Assembly (NCBI RefSeq): GCF_033949435.1
Contig: NZ_JAXARY010000002.1
Coordinates: 257,119 to 297,118, forward strand
Length of the DNA stretch: 40,000 bases
Direction of reading: 5' to 3'
From: Methylomonas defluvii
GTDB taxonomy: Bacteria; Pseudomonadota; Gammaproteobacteria; Methylococcales; Methylomonadaceae
Shown here piece by piece: positions 3,401-34,552 of this stretch. The notes beneath the pieces were generated by a model, which saw only the letters and a program-made list of their open reading frames with translations, had not been told where the DNA came from and made no database searches. The number at the start of each line of letters is the position of its first letter. Within the stretch, counting starts at the first letter, position 1. Both the position numbers and the translations under genes were made by a program.

Positions 3401-3536
3401 CCGCTATTCGCCGTGACAAGCGCTTGTCAGTTTTACTAGTTCTGAACTGACGAATTTTTTCTTACCCTCGACGTGACTTTTCCGAATGGGCTTCACCGCT
3501 CAGGCTAAGTCACGCCTGTTGATCGGAGAACACATC

Positions 3537-4031
3537 ATGAATAACCCTTTTCAAGTACACGAACTGCCTGGCCATTTTCTGATACTACGACCCGTTACCG
3601 AAGCGGAAATAGTGGCGATGGCCAAGCATTTAATCGCGCAGCAGTTCATCCGTGGTCAGGCCTTAACCTCCCCTGACGATGCGCGCGAGTTTCTAATGCT
3701 GGAATTAGCCCACTTAGAGCATGAGGTGTTCTATTGCATTTTCCTCGATAACCAACACCGCATTATTGAGGCTGAGGCCTGTTTCCAGGGCACGATAGAT
3801 TGTGCCAATGTCTACCCGCGTGAACTGGTGAAACGGACCTTGCAATTGAATGCCCGCGCGGTGATTTTGGCGCATAACCATCCCTCGGGATTAGCGGAAC
3901 CCAGCGAAGCCGACCGTGCGATTACGCGTAAGTTAATCGATGCCCTCAATCTGGTCGAGGTCCGCGTGCTGGACCATTTCATTATTGCCGGCATCGAGCA
4001 ATTTTCCTTTGCCGAAAGAGGCTTGTTATGA
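3537..4031 (+). CDS. radC: RadC-like JAB/MPN-domain protein
   Basis: It has the JAB metal motif HNHPSG...PSEADRAIT and the C-terminal DHFII pattern. I prefer the start at 3537 (GGAGAA 6 nt upstream) over the track start at 3486. Confidence 0.85.
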   Translation: MNNPFQVHELPGHFLILRPVTEAEIVAMAKHLIAQQFIRGQALTSPDDAREFLMLELAHLEHEVFYCIFLDNQHRIIEAEACFQGTIDCANVYPRELVKRTLQLNARAVILAHNHPSGLAEPSEADRAITRKLIDALNLVEVRVLDHFIIAGIEQFSFAERGLL

Positions 4032-4543
4032 GCGGGAATGCACTATTGGCCGACAGAAAGTTTCGCAGTGTGGTGTTGACCCACTTGACCTGTATCCGCT
4101 TGCCATGGATCGGCGTGAACACCCGTGTTGGTAACAGCCGTGCCGGCAACCCTGAACCAGTCGCCAATTGGCGCCAAACCTTACCCGTAAACCCACGATG
4201 GGGCTTACGGCGTCTGTTGCCGTCATACCTTCGGAAAGCTACACATCATTTAGGCATGTTAATGTGCATTAACATGCCCATGCGGGCATTTATGATCACG
4301 GATGTAGCGATGAATGCGGACATTAGCGACGTGAGCGACATGGCTGTTGCGGACCGGATCGACTTCACTAACATCGGTGTCGTTGATGTCCTTATCAACA
4401 TCTGTTGTGTCGTCGATTTTCTTGGTACCGTTGCGCCCTTTTTTGCCCCTGATGTCCTCAGTGATGTTGATGCCCTTAATGTCATCAACGACATCAATGT
4501 GATTCATCGAGGCGCGGTAGATCACGAGGAGGCTGCGGCATGA
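4028..4543 (+). CDS. Hypothetical protein (171 aa), D/V/I/N-rich C-terminal half
   Basis: ATGA start/stop overlaps occur at both ends (with the radC stop at 4029-4031 and the integrase ATG at 4540), which suggests translational coupling. The composition is odd and competing minus-strand ORFs exist (4259-4627, 4246-4497). Confidence 0.4.
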   Translation: MSGNALLADRKFRSVVLTHLTCIRLPWIGVNTRVGNSRAGNPEPVANWRQTLPVNPRWGLRRLLPSYLRKATHHLGMLMCINMPMRAFMITDVAMNADISDVSDMAVADRIDFTNIGVVDVLINICCVVDFLGTVAPFFAPDVLSDVDALNVINDINVIHRGAVDHEEAAA

Positions 4544-5526
4544 CCAACGACTCGTCATTACCCCTGACACATGATCATGCAGTCTCCAGTCGTGTCGCGC
4601 TGATGGTGTATCTCGATAATCTGGCACCCAGCGGGCGACGTTCGATGCGGTCCTTGTTACAACGCGCGGGTGGATTGCTGACTTGGTCAGGGACGGTGGA
4701 GGACATGCCCTGGCTGTCGTTACGTTTTCAGCAGCTGATGCAGTTACGGTCGGCGCTACGCCAAGCAGAGTTGTCGATCAATACCGTGAATACCTGCCTG
4801 GCGGCGATACGCGGGGTGTTGAAAGCCGGCTTTCTGCTGGGCCACTATCCGGCGGAGGACTGGCAACGGATTCAGGCGCTAAACAGTGTGCGCGGTAAAG
4901 TGTTGCCAGCCGGTCGCCAGTTGGCGACACGGGAAGTCCACCGGCTATTAGCTATTTGTGAACAAGACAAAGCCGCTCTGCTCGGCCAACGCGATGCGGC
5001 GATCCTGGCCTTGTTGGTGTTTGCCGGCCTGCGGCGCAGTGAAGTCGCTAGTCTCCGTGTCAACGATTATACGCCCCGCAACGGCTTGCTGCTAATTCGT
5101 GAAGGTAAAGGTCAGAAGCCGCGTGAATTGCAGTTGCCTGCCCAGGCCAGGCAGGCTTTAAAGCGCTGGTTGCATCAACGCGGCTGTGTGCCGGGGCCGT
5201 TGTTTTGCCAATTGGCGAAAACCCAGCGCAGTTCTGATCAAGATCCTATCCAGCGAAACCGAAGCCGTCAGGGTTGTTTACCGACCGAGCCGATCAACGC
5301 CCACCAAGTGTATGCGCTGCTCAGGCGGCGTTGTCGGCAGGCGAAGCTGAAGCCTTGCACACCACACGATTTACGTCGCACGTTTATCAGCAAGCTGTTG
5401 GAACAAGGCGTGGACTTTAACACCACCCGGCAATTGGCCGGCCATGAGCACATGCAAACCACGGCCTTGTATGATCGCCGCACAGTGAAAACGCAACGAC
5501 AAGCCATGGCGAATTTTCGGTTGTGA
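4540..5526 (+). CDS. Tyrosine recombinase/integrase (XerC/D-like), integrase 1
   Basis: Catalytic signatures are present: AGLRRSEV (Arg I), HDLRRTF (His-x-x-Arg) and GHEHMQTTALY (His...Tyr). Confidence 0.9.
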   Translation: MTNDSSLPLTHDHAVSSRVALMVYLDNLAPSGRRSMRSLLQRAGGLLTWSGTVEDMPWLSLRFQQLMQLRSALRQAELSINTVNTCLAAIRGVLKAGFLLGHYPAEDWQRIQALNSVRGKVLPAGRQLATREVHRLLAICEQDKAALLGQRDAAILALLVFAGLRRSEVASLRVNDYTPRNGLLLIREGKGQKPRELQLPAQARQALKRWLHQRGCVPGPLFCQLAKTQRSSDQDPIQRNRSRQGCLPTEPINAHQVYALLRRRCRQAKLKPCTPHDLRRTFISKLLEQGVDFNTTRQLAGHEHMQTTALYDRRTVKTQRQAMANFRL

Positions 5527-5768
5527 CCCAGCTGGGCGATGGCGGCGTTTCAGTTGTAACAAGCGACCAGCACGAAAACTAATAGCACGTTTCAACACGC
5601 TAGCAGCAAATTGCTAACAGCACACTGCTGATGTGCACGCTGTCAATCAACGTCATTCAGAAACTGTAAATCAATCAACGACACCGGCAGCCGCGCCCAA
5701 TTTGGGCGGGATGCTGTGCACGTTTAATTCACACCACCAAGTTATCCACTTTATCCGGAGGATTATTT

Positions 5769-6185
5769 ATGCCTGTACAAATTGAACACATCGATGCCAT
5801 TGCCCGCCAAAAACAACGGGCGGTGTTGTATCTGGAATTTCATCCGCAATCGGCCTTCGCAGACTCGTCTGTTTACGATTATGAAGCCGATAACAAACGC
5901 CAAGCATTTTTAGGCTGGCTGCAACAACACGGCATCGCCTGGCAGCCTAGCGCGCCGATAGCCTCAGGTTGTGGTTTCGGCGCCTATCTCGGCCAGATCT
6001 ATATCGATTTGCCGATGGACGATGACGATCCACTGTATTGCCGTTTACGTGATCACTTGGAATATCCCGATGGTTCGATGCGCGATCCTAACCAACGTTT
6101 TTTCTATCTGCCGTTGGACATCGCTATGCGGAATGCTCATCACGACGAGCCGGGATTTTGGGACACATGGGCCAAGGATTTTTAG
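5769..6185 (+). CDS. Hypothetical protein (138 aa)
   Basis: GGAGGA sits 6 nt upstream of the ATG. The ORF has ordinary composition. No family was recognised. Confidence 0.6.
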   Translation: MPVQIEHIDAIARQKQRAVLYLEFHPQSAFADSSVYDYEADNKRQAFLGWLQQHGIAWQPSAPIASGCGFGAYLGQIYIDLPMDDDDPLYCRLRDHLEYPDGSMRDPNQRFFYLPLDIAMRNAHHDEPGFWDTWAKDF

Positions 6186-6458
6186 TCACGTTGCAGGTCA
6201 TGCCGTCGCGATTTTTCCGACAAAGTTCATGCAGAAAACCATTTTGCAAAGATAACAAAGTGAGCAATACCGATGCCGTTTTTTCAAATTATTTTTTAAC
6301 CAAAAAGGACACCCAAAAATAACGATTACTACGCAGTGAAAAATGCGCGAATTTTTTTGCAAAAAAACACACTGCAAAAAACACCGCAAAAACGCGGGAA
6401 AAACCGCGATTTTCAAAACTGTAAATGAGTTGCACCTCAACAAACCGTGGTGCCAATC

Positions 6459-6833
6459 ATGTCCGAACAAACCCATTCACAACTGCCATTTGTACCGAGA
6501 TTTATCCGCATTCGCGATGCGCCGTTTTATCTCGGCATGGACAAAAACCGCTTTAACGCAGAGGTCAGACCGGCGCTCACCGAAATCAAAATCGGTACGC
6601 AAGGTATTGCCTTTGATCGCAACGAACTTGATGCCTGGGCCGACGATTACGTGCGTCGTGTCGGTACGCCGGGTAACCAAAAACTGGAGAAAGAAACATG
6701 GCAAAGAAAATCCCTGGCCTCGTCAAACGGGGCGACTGCTGGCACATCGACAAAGTCATCAAAGGCAAACGCATTTGCGAAAGCACTGGCACAGGCGACC
6801 TCGAAGAAGCCCAAAGGTATCTCGCCCGCATAA
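6459..6833 (+). CDS. AlpA/excisionase-like DNA-binding protein
   Basis: The segment FIRIRDAPFYLGMDKNRFNAEVRPALTEIKIGTQGIAFDRNELDAWADDYV has the pattern of small winged-helix excisionase/AlpA regulators, and it lies immediately upstream of an integrase. Its 3' end overlaps the integrase start by 136 nt. Confidence 0.55.
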   Translation: MSEQTHSQLPFVPRFIRIRDAPFYLGMDKNRFNAEVRPALTEIKIGTQGIAFDRNELDAWADDYVRRVGTPGNQKLEKETWQRKSLASSNGATAGTSTKSSKANAFAKALAQATSKKPKGISPA

Positions 6834-7756
6834 TGGAAAGGCATCGTCAAGCCACTGTGTATGGTGTGCGGCCTAAACGCATTTTTCAGGAAGCCGCGAC
6901 AAAATATCTAATGGAGTCGCAGAAGGCGAGTCTTAAGGATGCTGCCTTGCATCTCAAATTGTTGGATGACTATATTGGCGAATTGGCCTTGGAATCGATC
7001 CACATGGGCACCTTGCAAGCCTACATTCAAGATCGCAAAGCACAGGGCGTTAAAAACCGCACCATCAACTATGCCTTGCAATCGGTTCGGCACATCCTGA
7101 ATCTGGCGGCTATGGAATGGATAGACGAATTTGGGCTGACCTGGTTAGCGACCGCGCCTAAAATAAAGTTGTTGCCGCAACTGGATGCGCGTAAGCCAAG
7201 TCCATTAAGTTGGGAGCAACAGGAAAGGTTGTTTGGCGAATTACCCGAGCACTTGGCTAAGATGGCTTTGTTCAAGGTCAACACCGGCTGCCGGGAACAG
7301 GAAGTGTGCTCCTTGCGCTGGGAATGGGAGGAGTTTATCCCCCAGTTGAACGCCAGTGTGTTTACCATTCCAGCGCATGCTGTCAAAAACCGCATGCCGC
7401 GGGTAGTCGTCTTAAATAGCGTGGCAAGAAGTGTTATCGAACAAGTGCGCGGACAGCACCCTGAATATGTGTTTACTTACAAAGGTCATCGCGTCGGGAC
7501 GATGAATAACTCGGGCTGGCAAAAGGCACGGAAACGCGTGGGTTTGCAACAGGTCAGAATTCACGACCTAAAGCACACCTTCGGGCGACGTTTAAGGGCG
7601 GCGAATGTATCGTTTGAAGACCGGCAGGATTTGTTGGGTCATAAATCCAGCCGTATCACCGATCACTATTCGTCGGCAGAACTAGCCAACTTGATCGCGG
7701 CGGCGGAAAAAGTCTGCATAACCAAGTCACGCAAAATTCACGCAACGGAAAATTAA
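6698..7756 (+). CDS. int: Tyrosine integrase (phage-type), integrase 2, adjacent to tRNA-Thr
   Basis: GGAGAA sits 6 nt upstream. Signatures are TGCREQEVCSLRW (Arg I), HDLKHTFGRR (box II, with Lys where Arg is usual) and LLGHKSSRITDHYS (His...Tyr). Confidence 0.9.
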   Translation: MAKKIPGLVKRGDCWHIDKVIKGKRICESTGTGDLEEAQRYLARIMERHRQATVYGVRPKRIFQEAATKYLMESQKASLKDAALHLKLLDDYIGELALESIHMGTLQAYIQDRKAQGVKNRTINYALQSVRHILNLAAMEWIDEFGLTWLATAPKIKLLPQLDARKPSPLSWEQQERLFGELPEHLAKMALFKVNTGCREQEVCSLRWEWEEFIPQLNASVFTIPAHAVKNRMPRVVVLNSVARSVIEQVRGQHPEYVFTYKGHRVGTMNNSGWQKARKRVGLQQVRIHDLKHTFGRRLRAANVSFEDRQDLLGHKSSRITDHYSSAELANLIAAAEKVCITKSRKIHATEN

Positions 7757-7767
7757 AGGCAATAAAA

Positions 7768-7804
7768 AAGGGAATCAATGATGTTGTATGTCATTGATTC
7801 CCTT
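7768..7804. terminator. Perfect 14-bp stem hairpin between the integrase and the tRNA 3' end
   Basis: AAGGGAATCAATGA (7768-7781), a 9-nt loop, then TCATTGATTCCCTT (7791-7804). A/T-rich sequence flanks both sides. Confidence 0.6.
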
Positions 7805-7813
7805 AATTAAATA

Positions 7814-7889
7814 TGGAGCTGGCGATGGGACTCGAACCCGCGACCGGCTGATTACAAATCAGCTGCTCTACCAACTGAGCTACACCAGC
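7814..7889 (-). tRNA. tRNA-Thr (anticodon UGU), CCA encoded
   Basis: The reverse complement folds as a cloverleaf: acceptor GCTGGTG/CGCCAGC, D arm GCTC-AGTTGGTA-GAGC, anticodon arm GCTGA-TTTGTAA-TCAGC, T arm GCGGG-TTCGAGT-CCCAT, then TCCA. Confidence 0.9.
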
Positions 7890-13192: not shown

Positions 13193-14413
13193 CTACTCCT
13201 GATCAAGGCCAAACGCTTTGTGCAATGCGCGCACTGCCAGCTCCAGGTACTTCTCGTCAACCACCACGGAAATCTTGATTTCGGATGTCGAGATCATCTG
13301 GATATTGATACCTTCGTCGGCCAATACTTTGAACATGGTGCTCGCGATGCCCGCGTGCGAACGCATACCGACGCCGACAATCGACACTTTGACGATACTG
13401 TTATCGCCAATGATGGTCGTGTTACCGCCCAAGTCGGCGCGCAAACCTTCCAACACTTTCTGCGCGCGGGCAAAGTCGTTGCGATTCACCGTAAAGGTGA
13501 AATCGGTCGTGCCATGTGCGGAAATGTTCTGCACGATCATGTCCACCTCGATATTCTCGGCGGCGATCGGTCCCAGGATTTTCGACGCCACGCCCGGCAG
13601 ATCAGGCACGCCGGTCAAGGTCAGCTTGGCCTCGTCCCGGTTAAACGCGATGCCTGAAATTAACGCTCTTTCCATTTCTGATTCCTCGTAGGTAATAAGG
13701 GTGCCGTTGCCTTCCATAAACGAAGACAACACGCGCAATTTGACATTGTATTTGCCGGCGAACTCGACCGAACGGATTTGTAAGACTTTCGAGCCCAAGC
13801 TGGCCATTTCCAGCATTTCCTCAAAAGTGATGTGATCCAGGCGGCGGGCTTTCGGCACCACGCGCGGATCGGTGGTATACACGCCGTCCACGTCGGTGTA
13901 GATATGACATTCGTCGGCTTTCAAAGCCGCCGCCAAAGCCACGCCGGTAGTATCCGAACCACCACGGCCCAGGGTAGTGATATTGCCATGCTCGTCCACG
14001 CCCTGAAAACCGGCCACCACGACAACCCTTCCGGCATCCAGATCAGCGCGCATATTCGCTTCATCTATCTCCCGAATCCGCGCTTTGGTGTGCGCGCTAT
14101 CGGTCAGAATACGCACTTGAGCGCCGGTATAGGATCGCGCTTCGCAACCCAACTGATGCAAAGCCATCGACAGCAAGGCGATGGTGACTTGCTCGCCAGT
14201 GGACAGCAACACATCCAGCTCACGGTCGGTCGGCTGTGGCTGCAACTCTTTTGCCAAAGCCACGAGGCGATTGGTTTCGCCGCTCATCGCGGACACCACC
14301 ACCACAATCTGATCGCCCGCATCGCGGGCTTTTTTCACTTTCTCGGCGACCGCCTTGATACGTTCCACCGTACCAACGGAAGTGCCGCCAAATTTATAGA
14401 CGTACAATGCCAT
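13193..14413 (-). CDS. lysC: Aspartate kinase
   Basis: It has the N-terminal YVYKFGGTSVG kinase motif. The length is 406 aa, with a C-terminal ACT-type regulatory region. Confidence 0.95.
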   Translation of the reverse strand: MALYVYKFGGTSVGTVERIKAVAEKVKKARDAGDQIVVVVSAMSGETNRLVALAKELQPQPTDRELDVLLSTGEQVTIALLSMALHQLGCEARSYTGAQVRILTDSAHTKARIREIDEANMRADLDAGRVVVVAGFQGVDEHGNITTLGRGGSDTTGVALAAALKADECHIYTDVDGVYTTDPRVVPKARRLDHITFEEMLEMASLGSKVLQIRSVEFAGKYNVKLRVLSSFMEGNGTLITYEESEMERALISGIAFNRDEAKLTLTGVPDLPGVASKILGPIAAENIEVDMIVQNISAHGTTDFTFTVNRNDFARAQKVLEGLRADLGGNTTIIGDNSIVKVSIVGVGMRSHAGIASTMFKVLADEGINIQMISTSEIKISVVVDEKYLELAVRALHKAFGLDQE

Positions 14414-14452
14414 GCTTTTTTTGACCTTTCTCGGCTATTAGGGCTTTATTGT

Positions 14453-14712
14453 TGTGTCGCTGTCGCGACTGATTAATTTAACGTCGGTTCTCGCACCGAC
14501 AGGCGAGATACTTTCTTTTGCATCGCCAAAAGAAAGTATCCAAAGAAAAGGCGACCCGGACGCCGCTTTAACCCTGCGCGCCTCGCTTTTAGCGGGGGTT
14601 GCCGAAAGGGGCTCCTGCCCCTTCGTCAACGCGATGCATCCCTGCATCGCCCCTTCGGGCTGATCCCGCCAAAAGCTCCGGTGCTCGGCGCGGCATACGG
14701 GACAAAAACCAT
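14453..14712. repeat. Copy A of a ~258-bp structured repeat, inverted relative to copy B
   Basis: Hand alignment to the reverse complement of 16138-16404 gives ~26 differences in ~258 positions. It contains perfect hairpins at 14483-14500, 14507-14540 (14-bp stem), 14607-14622 and 14631-14650. Confidence 0.9.
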
Positions 14713-14751
14713 CCAGGCATTTATTGAAAAACCTATAATATTTCTTTCGCG

Positions 14752-15222
14752 TTAATCAGCCGATTTCCTAGCGATGTTACATATGACAAATGTAACAAGA
14801 AAAATTTGCACCAAGTTATTTATAAAAGACATAAGTAACAAATAGAACGGCAAAGAATTGCTATTTGGAGAAAATCCGTAAACCGATAACGAAGCAGTGA
14901 TTAATAAACAAATTATCGAAAAATAATAGGTAAAGAAAAACGTATCGAGGTATCCATTTCTTTTATAAGCCTCAAAATTAGGCGATTTCGTGAAAACAAA
15001 TAAAATAGTAATTACAGTCACTAGAAAACCAAGCATTGTGTAAGAAAAACCAGCAATCATATTAGCCAGATCTTTCTTGTTTTCGGATAACAACCAAGGA
15101 GAAATCCAGTGAAGCTCAGTCGTTTTCTTGTAGATCAGATAAAGCACTGGACCAGGAACCAGCATCGCAAAACTTAGAAATAGATTCAACATTACCTTGC
15201 TTGATCGCTTCATCCTGCTCAT
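14752..15222 (-). CDS. RexB-like four-TM membrane protein (156 aa)
   Basis: It has four hydrophobic segments (aa ~10-31, 55-77, 92-117, 124-150). The SD GAAGGTGA sits 6 nt upstream of the ATG at 15222. Size, topology and position after a RexA-like gene match lambda RexB (144 aa) as I remember it. Confidence 0.65.
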   Translation of the reverse strand: MSRMKRSSKVMLNLFLSFAMLVPGPVLYLIYKKTTELHWISPWLLSENKKDLANMIAGFSYTMLGFLVTVITILFVFTKSPNFEAYKRNGYLDTFFFTYYFSIICLLITASLSVYGFSPNSNSLPFYLLLMSFINNLVQIFLVTFVICNIARKSAD

Positions 15223-16057
15223 GTTCGATCACCTTCTTTTTGAGAACTGAATTGTTGGTAATTTTCTCCCTAATCTTTGTAGCAATTTCTCTCTCATCCC
15301 GCGTGTTGATATTGTCTGCTACTATCCCATTGCCAGCCAGATATAAATCAATCAAGGATGGGTGAAGATCATCTTTTGCGCGAACAACAAGCTTCTCAAG
15401 ACCTTCATCAGGAATTCTTGCCATCATTTTTTTGACAGCTTTTCCGATATCCTTTCTAGCTTTAGGTTCGATCACAATTTCTAAACTATCAACATCTTCA
15501 AACTCATCAGCGCTACCTCCAAGGTAATTGGCGATATCATCAAAAAAATCATTCGATTTATTTATCTGAATCGTCGATTTCCCAATAAAAGGCATAGACA
15601 TAGCTTCTGCTTTCGTGGCTTGGTGAAGAAATGGTATTAAGTTAAATTGATATTCCGTAATTCCTATCGACGACAAAACGTCATTTATGAAATTACCAAA
15701 CGATGCAAGACGTGGCGCCATCGTTGTAGAAGCAAATCCAAGGTAGCTATCCATGACAAAAACGTAAGATGCAAAACCGAGCATCTCATCCTTATCAAGT
15801 ACATCATAAATTTCACCCACACTAGTATCTTGCGAATTTATCTTTTTGATAACTTCTTTGCTTCGAGTCTGGATAAACAAATACAAGTCACCAGGCCCAT
15901 GCAACAAAAAGATATGTTCTCCATTATGTGTAAATTTGTTTTTATAATTTGGATCTTTAAACTGACAAAAGGCTTGAATGAAGTTCTTAATAGGCATTCT
16001 GTATTTAACGCCAGTTTTTACCTCAGTAAAAACATATCCATAATAGCTCAGTTTCAT
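15116..16057 (-). CDS. RexA-like protein (313 aa)
   Basis: Colinear blocks match lambda RexA from memory: LFIQTRSKEVIKKINS / LFTKTNDKSLVQKINR; LGFASYVFV..GFASTT / LGFPSFLFV..GFARTV; PFIGKSTIQI / HFIGRTTVKV; DSLEIVIEPKARKDIGKAVKKM / DSLDIVIKPKFKRDIKKVAKDI; VRAKDD / LRAKDE. Confidence 0.7.
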   Translation of the reverse strand: MKLSYYGYVFTEVKTGVKYRMPIKNFIQAFCQFKDPNYKNKFTHNGEHIFLLHGPGDLYLFIQTRSKEVIKKINSQDTSVGEIYDVLDKDEMLGFASYVFVMDSYLGFASTTMAPRLASFGNFINDVLSSIGITEYQFNLIPFLHQATKAEAMSMPFIGKSTIQINKSNDFFDDIANYLGGSADEFEDVDSLEIVIEPKARKDIGKAVKKMMARIPDEGLEKLVVRAKDDLHPSLIDLYLAGNGIVADNINTRDEREIATKIREKITNNSVLKKKVIEHEQDEAIKQGNVESISKFCDAGSWSSALSDLQEND

Positions 16058-16137
16058 GTCTGCTTTTTTATCCTAAAAGTTAAATAACCGCTTATCTATG
16101 ACAGTTTTTGTTTACCCGTGCTGAATGCCGCTTCATA

Positions 16138-16404
16138 GGCTGGGGCGGGCTTTATCCCGTATGCCGCGCCGAGCACCGGAGCTTTTGACGGGAACAGCCC
16201 GCAGGGGCGATGCAGGGATGCATCGCGTTGACGAAGGGGCAGGAAGCCCCTTTCGGCAACCCCCGCCAAAAGCGAGGAGCGCAGGGAATAAGCGGCATCC
16301 GGGTCGCCTTTTCTTTGGATACTTTCTTTTGGCGACGCAAAAGAAAGTATCTCGGTCGTCGGTCCGAGAACCGACATTCAAATACCCGTCGCGATAGCGA
16401 CACA
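16138..16404. repeat. Copy B of the ~258-bp structured repeat (inverted relative to copy A)
   Basis: See copy A. The outer ends of both copies read TGTGTCGCT(G/A)TCGCGAC. The ORFs called inside the copies are artefacts of the repeat. Confidence 0.9.
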
Positions 16405-16435
16405 TTTAACCCAAATAGCTTTTAATAAATAAAAA

Positions 16436-16678
16436 CTAAACAACCTCACCCTCTTCATACAAAGTCTCCGGCGCAATATCCGCCCCATTCGGCCAAGAAA
16501 TACTCCAGCCGTCGACAAAAAACTTCTGAAAATATTGCTGATCTTTCAATGGCTCAAAAACCTCGCCATTCAGCCATTTCCAACAATCGGCAATTCGCTT
16601 TTCGCCATTGTCGAAAGTCAGCTTGATTTTATAACCGCTCAAATATTCGGCATCGACGACAACTGGCATGTATTGCAT
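16436..16678 (-). CDS. DUF2442-like small protein (80 aa)
   Basis: The pattern YKIKLTFDNGEKRIAD...W...DIAPETLYE is typical of DUF2442 as I recall it. It starts 2 nt after the hicA stop. Confidence 0.7.
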   Translation of the reverse strand: MQYMPVVVDAEYLSGYKIKLTFDNGEKRIADCWKWLNGEVFEPLKDQQYFQKFFVDGWSISWPNGADIAPETLYEEGEVV

Positions 16679-16680
16679 AG

Positions 16681-16860
16681 CTATTTACCACTCAATTTCT
16701 TGATAATAGTTTTCGCCAGATAATCATTAATTTCACTATGCCTTGGCACAGCTTGAGATTGCCGAGTTTCATCGTTGGTATACCAGTCATGATTACCACC
16801 ATGTCTAGAAAGACGACACCCCATTTCTTCCAAGATTTTCAGCAAATCCCTTCTTTTCAT
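16681..16860 (-). CDS. hicA: HicA-family mRNA interferase toxin
   Basis: The sequence MKRRDLLKILEEMGCRLSRHGGNHDWY...PRHSEI is the YcfA/HicA pattern. Its ATG overlaps the hicB stop (TGATG). Confidence 0.8.
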   Translation of the reverse strand: MKRRDLLKILEEMGCRLSRHGGNHDWYTNDETRQSQAVPRHSEINDYLAKTIIKKLSGK

Positions 16861-17057
16861 CAAGCGACCTGCAAGGTCTCCACTTTGCGAATGAAAGGAA
16901 TTTCTTGAGTTTCAAGATCCTTATACAAATCCAGCAAGTTTCCCTGTAATTCTTGTTTGGTTTCACCTTGTGTCAAATAATCAGGATATTCATTCAAAAA
17001 ACCCAAATAAAAATCGCCGTCTTTCCAGCAAGTATATTCAATCGTTTTCATGGCCAT
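16860..17057 (-). CDS. hicB: HicB-family antitoxin (short form)
   Basis: It has the HicB N-domain pattern (IEYTCWKDGDFYLGFLNEYPDYLTQGETKQEL) and lies upstream of, and overlapping, hicA. Confidence 0.7.
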   Translation of the reverse strand: MAMKTIEYTCWKDGDFYLGFLNEYPDYLTQGETKQELQGNLLDLYKDLETQEIPFIRKVETLQVA

Positions 17058-17099: not shown

Positions 17100-19709
17100 C
17101 TAACCCAACCGCTCCCTCACCCACTCCGGCACCGCCGCCAACGCCGCCGGCAATCCGGCAGGATCATTACCGCCGGCCTGCGCCATGTCCGGCCGGCCAC
17201 CGCCTTTACCACCGACTTGAGTAGCGACAAAATTCACCAACTCGCCGGCTTTGACTTTATCCATCGCATCCTTGGACACGCTGGCGATCAGACTGACTTT
17301 ATCGCCGCTAACAGCCGCCAGAACCAAAGCCGAGCTGCCCAATTTGTTCTTCAACTGATCGGCCAGATCGCGCAAGGCTTTGGGATCGACGTCGTCCAGT
17401 TTCACGGCCAGCACTTTCACGCCGTTGACATCGACGGCTTGGCTGGTCATTTCGTCACCGGCCGAGCTGGCGAATTTGGCTTTGAGTTTTTCCAGTTCTT
17501 TTTCAAGGCCACGAGTTTTTTCCATCAGTTGATGGACTTTGTCGGCGGCTTTGTCCGGTGCTGCTTTCAATAACCCGGCGATGCTGAGCAAGGCTTTTTC
17601 GCGCTGGTCGATCCAATCCAACGCACCTTGACCGGTCACTGCTTCCAGACGTCTGACGCCGGCCGCGACGCCGGTTTCGCCGATGATTTTGAACAAGCCG
17701 ATGTCGCCGGTACGTTGCACGTGGGTGCCACCGCACAATTCGGTGGAAAAATCACCCATCGTCAGTACGCGCACTTCATCGCCGTATTTCTCGCCGAACA
17801 GGGCCATCGCGCCGGCTTTCACCGCATCGTCCTTGGCCATGATTTCGGCAGCAACCGGGTTGTTCAAACGAATCTGTTCGTTGACCAAGCGTTCGACGGC
17901 GGCAATTTCTGCCGGCGTCATCGGTTCGAAATGCGAAAAGTCGAAACGCAAGCGTTCGGAATTAACCTGCGAGCCTTTTTGCTGAACATGCTCGCCCAAG
18001 GTCGCCCGCAGCGCGGCGTGCAGTAAGTGCGTCGCCGAGTGATTGCGTTCGGTCGCTTTGCGGATTTCGGCATCGACGCTGACTTCGCAGGCTTGACCTT
18101 CGCTGAGCGTGCCGCGCAACACTTTACCTTTGTGCAGGAACAAATTACCGCCCTGCTTTTGGGTATCGTGAACCTCGAACACCGCATCGCCGCATTCGAT
18201 TCGGCCGGTATCGCCGACTTGGCCGCCGGACTCGGCATAGAATGGGGTTTGATCCAGAATCACCACGCCGTCGTCGCCGGCTTCCAACGCTTCGACCGGC
18301 TGGCCTTGCTTGAACAAGCCCAGGATTTGCACCGAGCCGTCCAAATGAAAATAACCGGTAAATTCGGTACTGCTGTCGTGTTTGATGTCTTGATCGTAAT
18401 CAGCGGCAAACGTACCGCCGGCCCGCGCCCGATCACGCTGCGCAGCCATTTCCACTTCGAAACCGGCGTGATCGACGCTGAGTTGGTGTTCGCGGGCGAA
18501 GTCGGCGGTCAAATCGACCGGGAAGCCGTAAGTGTCGTACAGCAAGAACACTACATCGCCGGGGATGACATGGCCGTCCATTTTGGCGACGCAGGCTTCC
18601 AGAATTTTCATACCCTGTTCGAGGGTTTCCGCGAAGCGCTCTTCTTCTTTTTTCAGTATCCGCTCGACTTGTTCCTGGGCATTCGCCAGTTCTGGATAAG
18701 CCTCCCCCATTTCCACCACTAGCGGCGCAACCAGTTTGTAGAAGAAGGTATCCTGAATACCCAAGCGGTAACCGTGACGAATCGCCCGGCGGATAATTCG
18801 GCGCAACACGTACCCGCGACCTTCGTTGGACGGCAACACGCCGTCAGCGACCATGAAAGCGCAGGAGCGGATGTGATCGGCGATTACCCGTAACGAGCTA
18901 TTCGCTAAATCGTCGGTGCCGGCTAGTTGCGCGGCGACTTTTAACAGGTTTTGGAACAGGTCGATTTCGTAGTTGCTGTGCACGCCTTGCATCACCGCCG
19001 AAATCCGCTCCAGGCCCATGCCGGTATCGACCGATGGCGCCGGTAGCGGCGTCAAATTACCGTCCTTGTCGCGGTCGTATTGCATGAACACCAAATTCCA
19101 GATTTCGATGTAACGGTCGCCGTCTTCGTCCGGGCTGCCGGGAGGGCCGCCGGCCACGTGTTCGCCGTGGTCGTAGAAAATCTCGGTGCAGGGACCGCAG
19201 GGGCCAACATCGCCCATCGACCAGAAATTGTCCTTGGCGCCGATGCGTGAGAAGCGCTTGGGATCGTGTTTGACGTCTTCCAACCAGATCGCTTCGGCTT
19301 CGGAATCTTCATCAAATACCGTCACCCACAGCCTTTCTTTGGGAATGCCCAGCTCCTTGGTCAGGAAGTCCCAGGCAAAATGAATCGCATCGCGCTTGAA
19401 ATAATCGCCGAAACTGAAATTACCCAGCATCTCGAAGAAGGTGTGATGGCGCGCCGTATAACCGACGTTTTCCAAATCGTTATGCTTGCCGCCGGCCCGC
19501 ACGCAGCGTTGGCTGGTGGCGGCACGGGTGAAATCGAGCTTTTCCCGCCCCAGGAATACGTCTTTGAATTGCACCATCCCGGCGTTGGTAAACAACAAGG
19601 TCGGATCATTACCCGGCACCAGCGAACTGGAGGGACGCACGGCGTGGCCGTGTTGGCGAAAGAATTCCAAAAAGGCGGCCCGCAATTCGGCGCTGGTCAT
19701 TTTTTTCAT
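17100..19709 (-). CDS. alaS: Alanine--tRNA ligase
   Basis: The length is 869 aa. The N-terminus [14 protein letters not shown]...PSSSLVP...[11 protein letters not shown] and the editing-domain [12 protein letters not shown] are classic AlaRS features. Confidence 0.97.
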
Positions 19710-19818: not shown

Positions 19819-20145
19819 TTAGAGCCAGTCACTCCATCGCCTAATTCGCTCATTTTCCAAACGAGCTTTAATATTTATAGGGTCTTGCCGACAATCCATC
19901 ACGGCATAAACAGAAACAAATTCATCATCGACAGTGTAATAAATCGCATACGGAAAGCTTCTTGCTAACAGCCGATGAAAGTCAGCAAACTTTTGGGGAT
20001 GAATGCCGGCATAAAGAGCCAGCGAATCAATATCCGCATAAAGAGAGTCCAAAAAATAACGGCCGACGCCCTCTTGTTGCCGCTCGTAAAACTCAAAGCC
20101 ATCCAGCAAATCAAATTTCGCGCTGTCAAAAATTCGAATTTTCAT
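19819..20145 (-). CDS. ParE/RelE-family toxin
   Basis: The length is 108 aa. The pattern ARSFPYAIYYTVDDEFVSVYAVMDCRQDP is typical of plasmid-stabilisation ParE-type toxins. It has a 4-nt overlap with the upstream antitoxin. Confidence 0.75.
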   Translation of the reverse strand: MKIRIFDSAKFDLLDGFEFYERQQEGVGRYFLDSLYADIDSLALYAGIHPQKFADFHRLLARSFPYAIYYTVDDEFVSVYAVMDCRQDPINIKARLENERIRRWSDWL

Positions 20146-32072: not shown

Positions 32073-32316
32073 ATGGCAGCCCAAAGCGGTCAAACAACTG
32101 CGTAAAATTGCCGACAAAAGATTGCGCGAACATGTTTACGATTCGGCTCAGATTTTGAAAGACTTTCCTGAGTGCGCCAATATCAAAAAATTGACCAAAC
32201 ATGAATACAGCTACCGTTTGCGCGTGGGTGCTTATCGGGTATTCTTTGAGTTTGACGGCATCGTCAAGGTTGTTTCCATTGAAGAGGTGAAAAAACGCGA
32301 TGAGCGCACATACTAA
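32059..32316 (+). CDS. RelE/ParE-superfamily toxin (HigB-like gene order)
   Basis: The sequence is [17 protein letters not shown]...[27 protein letters not shown]. The start lies inside the last 14 nt of mnmA. The toxin gene precedes the antitoxin gene. Confidence 0.8.
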
Positions 32317-32629
32317 TATTCAAATTATCAATGGTCTCGACGGCAACCCGGCTTTTGTGGTGATTCCTTATGCCGACTATCTAAAAGAACACTCGGTTGA
32401 CAATGCCACTATTCCTAACGAAGTGGTCGGCGCCGTTATTAAACAAGACATTACGCCCATTAAAGCTTGGCGGGAATATTTGCATTTATCGACAGCCGAG
32501 CTAGCCACACGCTTAGGCGTTTCTGAAGCGGAATATATTGATATAGAAAATCAAGAAAAACCTCATAAACAATTGCTAAAAAAAATGGCAGCCGCGCTAA
32601 ACATTAAGATTGATCAATTAAATTTTTGA
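32300..32629 (+). CDS. HTH (XRE-type) antitoxin
   Basis: It has a C-terminal helix-turn-helix (LSTAELATRLGVSEAEYIDIE) and overlaps the toxin gene by 17 nt. Confidence 0.75.
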   Translation: MSAHTNIQIINGLDGNPAFVVIPYADYLKEHSVDNATIPNEVVGAVIKQDITPIKAWREYLHLSTAELATRLGVSEAEYIDIENQEKPHKQLLKKMAAALNIKIDQLNF

Positions 32630-32693
32630 TAAAAACATTTTTCTCGTCTTTTCAGTGCAGCGCCTAAAATCAAATATACAACAAGAGTAAAAA

Positions 32694-33860
32694 ATGCTAA
32701 CCAATTTACGCATTAAAAATTTCCGCATGTTAGAGGATTTGGAAATTCCAAAGCTTGGCCGCGTAAATTTAATTGTTGGAAAAAACAATAGCGGAAAAAG
32801 CACGATTTTGGAGGCATTAAGAATATATGCAGGAAAAGCCCACCCTGAACTACTGGGAAATATTATAATAGATCATGATGAGTCATTCAAACTAGACCAG
32901 GAAGACAGACCCACCGACACCAACACCCTTTATGGCCTAAAGAATCTATTTCCTGGTAGAGTATTTCCAACAGATGACAATAACTTCATACAGATAGAAT
33001 CAAATTCAAACTTAGTTAAAATTGAATACGTATTTTATTATATGGAAGAATTTGTTACAAAATCTGAAGATGGATTAACCACGGAAACCACACAAAGAAA
33101 AGTAGTCGTAAAAAAATCCAACCTATCCAACAATGACAAAAAATTCCCTGCTATCCCCGCCATCCGAATTGGACGAAACACATTAATTGAATTAAATGTA
33201 GATCCTAAATTATCAAGCCTACATCCTCACTTATTCTGGAATATTGATAACCGTGAAACACTAAAATTCAGCTTAGTTTCAACAAACTTTATAACACCCG
33301 AGAAACTTGCCCAACTTTGGGATAAAATTGCTGCAAGTTCTAGCGAAGAAATTGTTTATCGTGCACTACAAATAGTTGACCCAACCATAGAAAAGCTCGC
33401 TTTTATCAATGGAAATACCGATTCCTCTTTACAAAACGAGAAAAATTTTAGACGAATAGCCATTGTCAAACTCAAAAACTCGGAGATTCGTGCCCCTCTT
33501 AACAGCATGGGAGACGGCATGACCCGTATTTTGCAACTGATACTTTCTGTATTTCCCGCAAAGGATGGAATTTTATTAATTGACGAATTCGAAAACGGCC
33601 TGCACTACAGTGTTCAAGAAGAAGTCTGGCGCATCATTTTCCAATTAGCGAAAGAGCTCAATATTCAAGTCTTTGCAACAACACATAGCTGGGATTGCAT
33701 CGAGAGTTTTACTAAAGCAGCAGTTGAAAGCCCGGAAGAAGGCGTTTTGCTGAAAGTATCCAGAAGCAAACTCACCAGCGATCATGGAAAAGTAATCGCT
33801 ACCGTTTACGATGAGACCGAGTTAGAAACGATAACCGCATCAGAGCTTGAGATTAGATAG
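32694..33860 (+). CDS. ABC/OLD-type AAA ATPase (388 aa)
   Basis: It has Walker A GKNNSGKST (K35), signature-like NSMGDGMTRIL, Walker B/D-loop ILLIDEFENGLH and H-loop ATTHS. The N-terminus LRIKNFRMLEDLEI is typical of AAA_15/AAA_21 conflict-system ATPases. Confidence 0.85.
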   Translation: MLTNLRIKNFRMLEDLEIPKLGRVNLIVGKNNSGKSTILEALRIYAGKAHPELLGNIIIDHDESFKLDQEDRPTDTNTLYGLKNLFPGRVFPTDDNNFIQIESNSNLVKIEYVFYYMEEFVTKSEDGLTTETTQRKVVVKKSNLSNNDKKFPAIPAIRIGRNTLIELNVDPKLSSLHPHLFWNIDNRETLKFSLVSTNFITPEKLAQLWDKIAASSSEEIVYRALQIVDPTIEKLAFINGNTDSSLQNEKNFRRIAIVKLKNSEIRAPLNSMGDGMTRILQLILSVFPAKDGILLIDEFENGLHYSVQEEVWRIIFQLAKELNIQVFATTHSWDCIESFTKAAVESPEEGVLLKVSRSKLTSDHGKVIATVYDETELETITASELEIR

Positions 33861-34552
33861 TGTCTAAAAAGATATTATTGGTCGAAGGCAATAATGACCG
33901 AGCCTTCTTCAGAGCATTCTGTAAAAAACTCGATCTCAAAGATGTCGATGTGCCAGAAATAACCATCGTCACGCCGAAGGATATAGGCGCACAAAGAAAC
34001 GGCTGGACCAACCTTATTGATCATTTACCAACAGAAATTAAGCGATTACGGAATGGTGATATTGATAAATTAGCGATTGTGATAGACGCAGATTTTGAGC
34101 CCGACAACTATGGTGGAGTTACTTCAAGGCGAAGTTTGATTACCAAGAAAATAAACGATTTTTTACAAAAACAAAATTACGGCCTCTACGAAATATCAGA
34201 TCAGCCTAATTACAAAACAGGCGATATTTTCAAGCACACAAACGGCTTACCTGATATTGGCTTATGGATCATGCCCGATCATCAAAATGACGGAATGATT
34301 GAAAATTTTGTCGAGCAAATGATTTCAGCCAGCGCCGAACAACAATCGCTATTAGCTCACGCAAACTTCTCAATAAATAACTTACCGACCAAGCTATTTA
34401 AAGACATTCATTTGTCGAAAGCCAGAATCTATACATGGCGAGCTTGGCAAAAAGAGCCTGGCATAAGATTGCCGGATGCGTTGTCCGAAAACCTATTAAC
34501 TATCGAAGCCGCTGCTAATTTCAGCAACTGGTTAGTCTCGGTTTTTAAATAA
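33860..34552 (+). CDS. Toprim-like partner protein (230 aa; DUF4276/DUF3226/DUF4435-like)
   Basis: Its GTG start shares one nucleotide with the ATPase stop (TAGTG). It has the N-terminal ILLVEGNND (Toprim Glu, E9) and the IVIDAD DxD motif (D76/D78). Confidence 0.7.
   Translation: MSKKILLVEGNNDRAFFRAFCKKLDLKDVDVPEITIVTPKDIGAQRNGWTNLIDHLPTEIKRLRNGDIDKLAIVIDADFEPDNYGGVTSRRSLITKKINDFLQKQNYGLYEISDQPNYKTGDIFKHTNGLPDIGLWIMPDHQNDGMIENFVEQMISASAEQQSLLAHANFSINNLPTKLFKDIHLSKARIYTWRAWQKEPGIRLPDALSENLLTIEAAANFSNWLVSVFK

Follow-up and report, generated by a model that had tools for sequence, protein, structure and literature searches.

What a pair of phage-exclusion genes is doing in a housekeeping gene cluster, away from any prophage, and how it came to be there, are the questions raised by a locus of the methanotroph Methylomonas defluvii. 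The locus lies in a 40,000-nucleotide (nt) stretch of contig NZ_JAXARY010000002.1 (positions 257,119 to 297,118), referred to below as the window, in which two adjacent genes between alaS and lysC encode proteins resembling RexA and RexB of phage lambda. An original prediction, made from the letters of the window, had picked out this pair (here rexAB) but did not mention that it is bracketed by inverted repeats of ~255-275 nt, ~90% complementary to each other, which we call arms. We show here that rexAB is the cargo of a repeat-bounded slot whose content turns over at orthologous sites in related species. In our reading the pair is probably a functional RexA-RexB phage-exclusion (abortive-infection) module that does not belong to a prophage, carried in a ~2-kb cassette between inverted ~275-nt arms at an alaS-lysC hotspot and exchanged via these arms. 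The parts of the cassette, in window coordinates, are as follows.

15116..16057, minus strand: rexA homologue, 313 amino acids, predicted cytoplasmic sensor and DNA-binding component
14752..15222, minus strand: rexB homologue, 156 amino acids, four-helix inner-membrane protein, predicted effector
15116..15222, minus strand: dual-coding stretch of 107 nt in which the 3' end of rexA and the 5' end of rexB overlap out of frame
15230..15236, minus strand: Shine-Dalgarno-like AAGGTG for rexB, within rexA
16128..16408, minus strand: alaS-side arm, ~275-nt structured repeat running outer to inner on the minus strand, outer end TGTGTCGCTATCGCGAC
14453..14729, plus strand: lysC-side arm, inverted copy of the ~275-nt repeat, with 40 nt between its outer end and the start codon of lysC
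14453..16408, no strand: entire cassette (arm-rexA-rexB-arm), 1956 nt, AT-rich

The RexA and RexB homologues

The alignment of the 313-amino-acid protein to lambda RexA, proposed by eye in the original prediction, is reproduced by BLASTP (33% identity over 207 residues, E 2e-32). Profile comparison, which by the terms of the original prediction could have refuted it, points the same way, with matches to Pfam PF15969 (RexA; 1.4e-65, 221.7 bits against a cut-off of 25, model positions 1-230 of 235), to the PADLOC RexA model (7.3e-63, positions 1-263 of 267) and to the PHROG 'RexA-like exclusion protein' (7e-35). The lambda RexA structure (PDB 8TWQ) is matched by sequence (phmmer, 2.4e-28) and by fold, being the sole PDB match at E <= 0.001 for an AlphaFold2 (AF2) model built from 33 homologues (predicted local distance difference test, pLDDT, 82; Foldseek E 1.3e-18, template modelling score 0.58-0.63). 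Judged by this model, the homologue is predicted to have the two-domain fold of lambda RexA, with a split globular domain, a dimerisation domain, and hinge and swivel loops. The only segment of at least three residues with a pLDDT below 50, residues 242-246, aligns with the lambda swivel loop. A hypothetical protein of Methylomonas sp. OY6, taken here as the host, matches it with 100% identity.

In lambda RexA, R219 and K221 are needed for DNA binding and for exclusion of T4rII (PMC11077077). The homologue has R226-A227-K228 aligned with lambda R219-A220-K221, and among 16 aligned RexA sequences, lambda's included, A227 never varies and K228 is at least 90% conserved. Members of this subfamily are ~307-318 amino acids long, as against 279 in lambda, and the protein studied here exceeds lambda RexA by 34. 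A C-terminal extension of ~35 amino acids is conserved in the subfamily and contains an invariant tryptophan, W302.

The 156-amino-acid protein matches the PADLOC RexB model (PDLC02340) at 4.1e-16, residues 9-153 of 156 being aligned to model positions 3-140 of 141. It had been predicted to have four hydrophobic helices, like RexB; hydropathy places them at about 10-31, 55-78, 94-116 and 124-150, and the AF2 model (pLDDT 82) agrees, with four long helices. Lysine and arginine residues lie at the N-terminus, in the loop between the second and third transmembrane spans and at the C-terminus, a positive-inside distribution that lambda RexB shares. A local resemblance noticed earlier, between IAGFSYTMLGFL.../NGYLDT here and LSSYAGTMIAIL.../YGYMTS in lambda RexB, is recovered in the BLASTP alignment of the two proteins (19% identity over 77 residues, E 3e-5), and hhalign places lambda RexB against the family profile with a probability of 65% (E 6e-5). 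The gene lies immediately 3' of rexA on the same strand, the gene order of lambda, and this arrangement is kept in seven homologous loci.

Both genes are intact and under purifying selection. An orthologous rexAB with 83% nucleotide identity lies downstream of alaS in another Methylomonas-like assembly (locus L211), and the ratio of non-synonymous to synonymous divergence (dN/dS) between the two is 0.10 for rexA and 0.15 for rexB. The synonymous component (dS) is ~0.93 elsewhere but only 0.25-0.30 inside the rexA/rexB overlap, in both frames, which is the pattern expected of genuine dual coding. In all seven homologous loci the distance from the rexB ATG to the rexA stop downstream of it is 88-112 nt, with an AAGGT/GAGG motif 5-8 nt upstream of this conserved ATG, whereas lambda has a 15-nt gap between rexA and rexB instead of an overlap. 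An overlap of ~100 nt with an internal Shine-Dalgarno sequence would probably couple translation of rexB to that of rexA, and such coupling would fix the RexA:RexB ratio, on which lambda exclusion depends.

By homology with lambda, a dimeric cytoplasmic RexA would detect a signal associated with infection and engage the four-transmembrane RexB in the inner membrane. RexB would then collapse the membrane potential and ATP, so that the infected cell no longer supports phage growth. Anti-phage activity and membrane depolarisation are thus what the pair would be expected to bring about, by analogy with lambda.

The arms and the turnover of their cargo

The alaS-lysC site was compared by scanning genomes for LysC and aligning the intervals with blastn. 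An identical two-arm layout was found between alaS and lysC in M. fluvii, M. methanica, M. rosea and M. rivi, and the alaS-side arm of the window scores 299 against the arm profile (nhmmer). The DNA enclosed by the arms differs in each species, and codes for a 534-amino-acid HNH protein, a 183-amino-acid protein of unknown function, a 355-amino-acid DUF4062 protein or a 462-amino-acid Schlafen (SLFN)/AlbA_2 protein. PADLOC assigned no known system to these four alternative cargos, so that the word defence rests there on the HNH, DUF4062 and SLFN domains. On the lysC side, M. methanica and M. rivi have an outer junction orthologous to that of the window. In two Methylobacter assemblies the junction is empty and arm-less, with 36-57 nt separating a DUF2442 gene from lysC. 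Identities among the arms at this site follow neither the relationships of the species nor the side on which an arm lies, a pattern compatible with recombination among arms.

The same arms occur well beyond this site. A profile search gave 214 copies in 123 loci, and a 19-nt invariant arm core, used as a metagenome query, matched at least 120 stretches; arm pairs with cargo recur in metagenomes at roughly 20 or more loci. The core had no match in IMG/VR and the arm none in PLSDB, and absence from the viral and plasmid collections searched fits vertical inheritance. Adjacent copies less than 4 kb apart are convergent in 53 cases, their outer-to-inner ends facing each other, divergent in one and tandem in 13. 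The gap within a doublet ranges from 72 nt ('empty' doublets) to 3.7 kb, and many doublets enclose coding cargo of 0.6-3.7 kb. 'Empty' pairs, with spacers of 72-225 nt, are found at sites that hold cargo in related strains, and one doublet corresponds to a solo copy elsewhere. Shared fragments of repeats led blastn clustering to link unrelated elements into chains, and explicit same-flank comparisons were therefore used instead; they yielded five further locus groups in which flanks and arms are the same and the cargo is different or missing, the alaS-lysC site being the sixth.

PADLOC identifies among the cargo a dCTP deaminase (2.8e-163), NsnA/PD-T4-2_A (1.5e-64) with a HEPN partner, type IV restriction (3.4e-23) and the candidate systems PDC-S31 and PDC-S05. 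Other cargo codes for DUF4238, DUF2971 and HNH proteins, and for lipoproteins and membrane proteins of unknown role. Diverse as it is, the other cargo between the arms is made up overwhelmingly of recognised defence genes, an indication that the slot is selected for defence.

The arm has sharp boundaries, with an outer end, (T)GTGTCGCTATCGCGAC, that has T-rich flanks, and an inner end, ...GGCATACGGGA, followed by a semi-conserved small hairpin. RNAalifold applied to 85 non-identical copies gave 73 pairs in 12 helices, and 31 of the 73 pairs show compensatory changes. Alignment cells are paired in 98.4% of cases, compared with 41-46% when partners are slid by 1-3 columns; double-change cells number 508 against 5-41 in the slid controls, and none of 500 shuffles reached the observed values. 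Compensation is almost always from one Watson-Crick pair to another, and the near-absence of one-sided G-U intermediates suggests a constraint on both strands or on DNA. As single-stranded DNA (ssDNA), one arm folds at -73 kcal/mol (z -7.1), and an empty doublet folds into one giant hairpin (z -26). Rfam, searched at gathering and E-value thresholds, contains no arm family, the sole hit being a chance-level match to Pseudomon-Rho (E 0.25). Each arm carries terminator-like hairpins with T-rich tails in both reading directions, and these are the terminator-like signals that a promoter and terminator scan picks up near rexA.

Two observations concern annotation and assembly. Spurious open reading frames (ORFs) of 60-90 amino acids arise from the arms on both strands (e.g. 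...LSFASPKESIQRKGDPDAA...; window 14438-14663 and 16096-16425), and genome annotations in the group will probably list them as hypothetical proteins. Short-read assemblies of the same Methylomonas strain (L002, L003; Logan contigs, SRR32663835/803) break ~30 nt into each arm and leave rexAB as a lone 1.5-kb contig, so that such cassettes look context-free in fragmented assemblies.

For the arrival of the cassette at the alaS-lysC site, and for its replacement in sister species, we infer exchange within or between the conserved arms. A leading candidate would be homologous, RecA-mediated recombination with the arms serving as portable homology; another, acting alone or alongside it, would be processing of arm ssDNA hairpins by a REP-associated tyrosine transposase (RAYT; REP, repetitive extragenic palindrome). 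One arm cargo is a 178-amino-acid RAYT (NCBIfam NF047646, 96.5 bits against a cut-off of 80, 1.3e-27), weakly similar to E. coli TnpA-REP (4ER8) and with orthologues annotated as such in Methylomonas sp. MK1, M. rhizoryzae and EFPC1/LW13. The gene is found among arms in three Methylomonas genomes, complete or draft. L111 and L218/L219 have it enclosed by an arm pair, and in L216 it adjoins arms; all of these are one syntenic locus and count as a single observation. At this locus the arms of Methylomonas MK1, EFPC1 and LW13 are rearranged (L216 2446-7284; L218/L219 3212-7090), with a partial arm among the features, which suggests inversions or recombination between arms. EFPC1 and LW13 carry two tandem RAYT copies there, and MK1 a truncated amino-acid permease and an IS200-like Y1 transposase. 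In the literature we found no paper that ties RAYTs or REPINs (inverted REP doublets) to defence cargo, or that describes such repeats in Methylomonas.

The setting of the cassette and rival explanations

Outside the arms, the site is occupied by the following genes.

13193-14413: lysC (aspartokinase; AA_kinase and ACT domains), flanking gene
16436-16678, minus strand: DUF2442 gene outside the cassette (Pfam DUF2442, 2.7e-14)
16681-16863, minus strand: HicA toxin gene outside the cassette (Pfam HicA_toxin, 2e-12)
16860-17057, minus strand: HicB-like ORF outside the cassette
17100-19709: alaS, flanking gene, with recX and recA further on

Three small accessory genes (the HicB-like ORF, HicA and DUF2442) therefore separate alaS from the rexAB pair. 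Small toxin-antitoxin (TA)-like genes (ParE-like, HicB-like, HicA, DUF2442) dot the recA-recX-alaS-lysC cluster at window 16436-17057 and 19819-20145, and the set outside the arms at the hotspot varies among Methylomonas species. DUF4160-DUF2442 lies upstream of rexAB at an unrelated free-standing locus as well (L212). Elsewhere in the window is a second defence-type module without flanking arms (32300-34552, plus strand), in which a helix-turn-helix gene (32300-32629) precedes genes for a 388-amino-acid ATPase (32694-33860) and a 230-amino-acid DUF3226 protein (33860-34552); the latter two match the PADLOC candidate PDC-M38A/B (3e-137 and 6e-69 respectively) and are AbiLi/AriA-like.

The picture drawn earlier, of a free-standing Rex-like pair in a non-enteric host, between alaS and lysC, AT-rich against GC-rich flanks and with no cI, cro or other phage gene around it, holds in each part. 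G+C is 0.33-0.39 over 14.6-16.2 kb and 0.53-0.60 in the flanks, a foreign base composition, and no cI, cro, other repressor, phage gene or integrase lies within 7 kb of rexAB. So does the statement that the two proteins are longer than those of lambda and divergent from them. As markers of mobile elements the window has only two tyrosine integrase genes (4540-5526, 6698-7756) and RadC (3486-4031), beside tRNA-Thr (7814-7889). These integrases are at least 7 kb from rexAB, with a DsbD-like gene, a copper ATPase and lysC in between, and together with RadC they probably form an integrative island (3486-7889) separate from the cassette.

Relatives of the pair have varied surroundings. One RexA relative, 60% identical, is encoded directly after a cI-like S24 repressor on a contig from a lambdoid phage, and another, 66% identical, is found in a Mu-like phage; adjacency to a cI-like repressor within a temperate phage is thus seen among relatives but not for rexAB here. 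Further relatives (41-70% identical) are free-standing among housekeeping genes on chromosomal contigs, and in deposited phage genomes the best RexA match is only 29-33% identical. Full-length homologues of 29-36% identity, C-terminal extension included, occur on small Acinetobacter plasmids in PLSDB (e.g. NZ_CP027248.1 5503-6366). With RexA relatives found in phages, on chromosomes and on plasmids, the module is portable. The plasmid homologues are annotated only as hypothetical proteins. Small Acinetobacter plasmids of this type are known for pdif modules; a pdif-module reading of the rexAB cassette was considered and rejected. An integron reading was likewise rejected, as the arms, ~275 nt in length, are inverted, no integrase lies beside the site, and the tyrosine integrases of the window are at least 7 kb away by a tRNA.

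Several observations weigh against the reading of rexAB as an exclusion module exchanged through its arms. We know of no phage of the host of rexAB. A sigma-70 promoter scan upstream of rexA gave nothing usable. For the 156-amino-acid protein no match to a Pfam RexB model was obtained at E <= 1, a fold search of BFVD with its model gave no match at E <= 0.001, and its identity to lambda RexB is 17-19%. A profile comparison with RexB, suggested as a check on the original prediction, gives a match with PADLOC and none with Pfam, and because similarity to lambda RexB itself is weak, membership of the family is taken from profile, topology and synteny. The hotspot is variable outside the arms too, with TA-like genes differing among species. 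No target-site duplication was found at 92 arm outer junctions, and blastn clustering of flanks and cargo gave no convincing case of the same cargo at two different loci. The link between RAYT and arms comes from one syntenic locus, and an arm has about ten times the length of a canonical REP. For lambda itself, exclusion of T4rII has been argued to be a possible by-product, and RexA to have a role in modulating the lysogenic switch (Adams et al., PMC11077077), a role that cannot apply to rexAB at the alaS-lysC site.

That rexAB might be all that survives of a decayed lambdoid prophage, its immunity region left stranded, is suggested by its AT-rich, foreign composition and by the closest characterised layout, cI-rexA-rexB, which is also that of the 60%-identical relative behind an S24 repressor. 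We nevertheless regard this as extremely unlikely. The boundaries are sharp and fall at inverted structured repeats, not att sites, and the surrounding 7 kb are free of phage genes, integrases and repressors. Neither pseudogene fragments of phage origin nor att-like direct repeats were seen around the pair in OY6 and its relatives. Unrelated non-phage cargo lies between the same arms at the same site in sister species, and selection has kept both genes intact, with the 83%-identical copy at the same site in another lineage. A pair that is a true RexAB with a role other than defence is a distinctly unlikely explanation, though less so than the remnant. RexB would then be an 'anti-death' factor shielding the antitoxins of neighbouring TA genes from proteolysis by Clp, and RexA a general DNA-binding or RdgC-like protein, as the HicAB and DUF2442 genes immediately upstream, and the DUF4160-DUF2442 genes upstream of rexAB at the unrelated locus, would allow. 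Set against this are the recognised defence genes that make up most other cargo, the constant company of rexA and rexB with their conserved overlap, and the finding that the anti-phage activity of Sucellos, a RexAB-like integron cassette, depended on both genes.

The remaining alternatives concern the arms. They could be unrelated to the cargo, two independent insertions resembling REPs or miniature inverted-repeat transposable elements (MITEs) that bracket an acquired pair by chance. Solo, tandem or odd arrangements of arms do exist, the hotspot varies outside them, and no target-site duplication or recombinase is tied to rexAB. Chance would not explain, however, why convergent pairs outnumber divergent ones by 53 to 1, why arms are kept at orthologous positions while the DNA inside them is replaced in six locus groups, or why 'empty' pairs occupy sites that are filled in related strains, and we hold it to be very unlikely. 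A test for MITEs or mobile insertion cassettes found, besides the lack of duplications at the outer junctions, that an arm-less empty site occurs only in another genus and that arms persist within Methylomonas. Finally, the arms could be structured non-coding RNAs or bidirectional terminators or insulators, their pairing reflecting transcriptional insulation. The 12 helices with strong covariation and the hairpins in both reading directions are in keeping with this, as is the insulation from AT-rich cargo that a highly expressed alaS-lysC operon would need. As a full account it is unlikely, given that compensation runs from Watson-Crick to Watson-Crick with very few one-sided G-U intermediates, that no Rfam family is matched, that one slot contains a RAYT, an enzyme of ssDNA hairpins, and that insulation alone leaves the replacement of cargo unexplained. 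Such a role could, though, coexist with one at the level of DNA.

Significance and relation to known systems

If rexAB is indeed an exclusion module carried in an exchangeable cassette, it bears on a question that is still debated for lambda, namely whether Rex function is independent of the lysogeny switch. A complete RexAB without cI or cro, under purifying selection in a non-enteric host, implies that RexAB can be selected for a function independent of that switch, and the locus amounts to a natural experiment. The conserved 100-nt overlap in turn gives access to the way in which the critical stoichiometry of RexA and RexB is determined.

In terms of genome biology, the arms may be of greater interest than the rexAB that they enclose. 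We consider it possible, if somewhat short of probable, that they are undescribed Methylomonas-wide slots, REPIN-like inverted doublets of a large structured DNA repeat, associated with a RAYT, and that small defence modules are captured and exchanged by them at numerous fixed loci. Such a system, holding RexAB, dCTP deaminase, PD-T4-2/Nsn, type IV restriction and PDC candidates, would amount to a 'biobank' of defence genes that resembles an integron but works on another principle of recombination. Were this confirmed, RAYT/REPIN-type elements, usually deemed gene-free, could organise the exchange of defence genes, and the arms could be used to search methanotrophs for new defence systems of small size.

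The nearest known system is that of lambda RexA and RexB (PDB 8TWQ; 'Rex' in PADLOC and DefenseFinder), with which rexAB shares the order rexA then rexB, the predicted RexA fold, the residues corresponding to R219/K221, a four-transmembrane RexB of ~150 amino acids and its distribution of charge. It differs in that it is neither next to cI/cro nor in a prophage, in its methanotroph host, in a RexA that is 34 amino acids longer (with W302), and in a rexB that begins ~100 nt inside rexA instead of after a 15-nt gap. The actinophage Rex-like systems Sbash gp30/31, CarolAnn and Toast are diverged RexA/RexB pairs that exclude phages, and RexA homologues outside prophages have been noted in Shewanella and Salinisphaera, reportedly with no RexB next to them and/or no prophage around them (PMC11077077). 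The actinophage systems are prophage-borne, and in contrast to the orphan RexA proteins the pair described here is complete. To call it an under-characterised defence configuration, as the original prediction did, is fair, with the reservation that Rex outside prophages is already in print (PMC11077077) and that a RexAB-like integron system has been tested (bioRxiv 10.1101/2024.07.02.601686).

That system, Sucellos (SclAB), is found in cassettes of the Vibrio cholerae superintegron, is RexAB-like and requires both genes (bioRxiv 10.1101/2024.07.02.601686). It resembles rexAB in being a Rex-like two-gene defence in a small, promoter-poor cassette among exchangeable chromosomal defence genes. 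Whereas Sucellos is recognisable by structure alone, not by Pfam, and is flanked by directly oriented attC sites served by IntI, the RexA studied here matches Pfam strongly and the pair lies between ~275-nt repeats that are inverted, no integron integrase being in view.

As regards the arms, REPINs are thought to be mobilised by RAYTs (Bertels and Rainey; PMC3337134, PMC3116915). The arms are like them in being dispersed palindromic repeats, mostly in inverted doublets with a short spacer, in a constraint on hairpins, not sequence, and in their absence from the viral and plasmid collections searched; a RAYT lies among arms at one syntenic locus. The resemblance is one of architecture only, as the arm unit is ~275 nt with 12 helices, compared with the single 20-40-nt hairpin of a REP, and many arm doublets, unlike REPINs, enclose protein-coding cargo of 0.6-3.7 kb. 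To our knowledge, gene-carrying doublets are not a described property of REPINs. Mobile insertion cassettes such as MIC231 of Bacillus cereus, and the MITE-flanked integrons of Acinetobacter, also have inverted non-coding ends and passenger genes with no transposase inside. The ends of MIC231-type cassettes are terminal inverted repeats derived from insertion sequences, with target-site duplications, and whole units transpose; the arms show no such duplications and stay fixed at orthologous sites while their cargo changes. The RexAB type is already catalogued and is detected by existing profiles, and the present pair belongs to it, with an extension and a gene overlap specific to its subfamily; it is the arm-bounded cassette that may be a new architecture.

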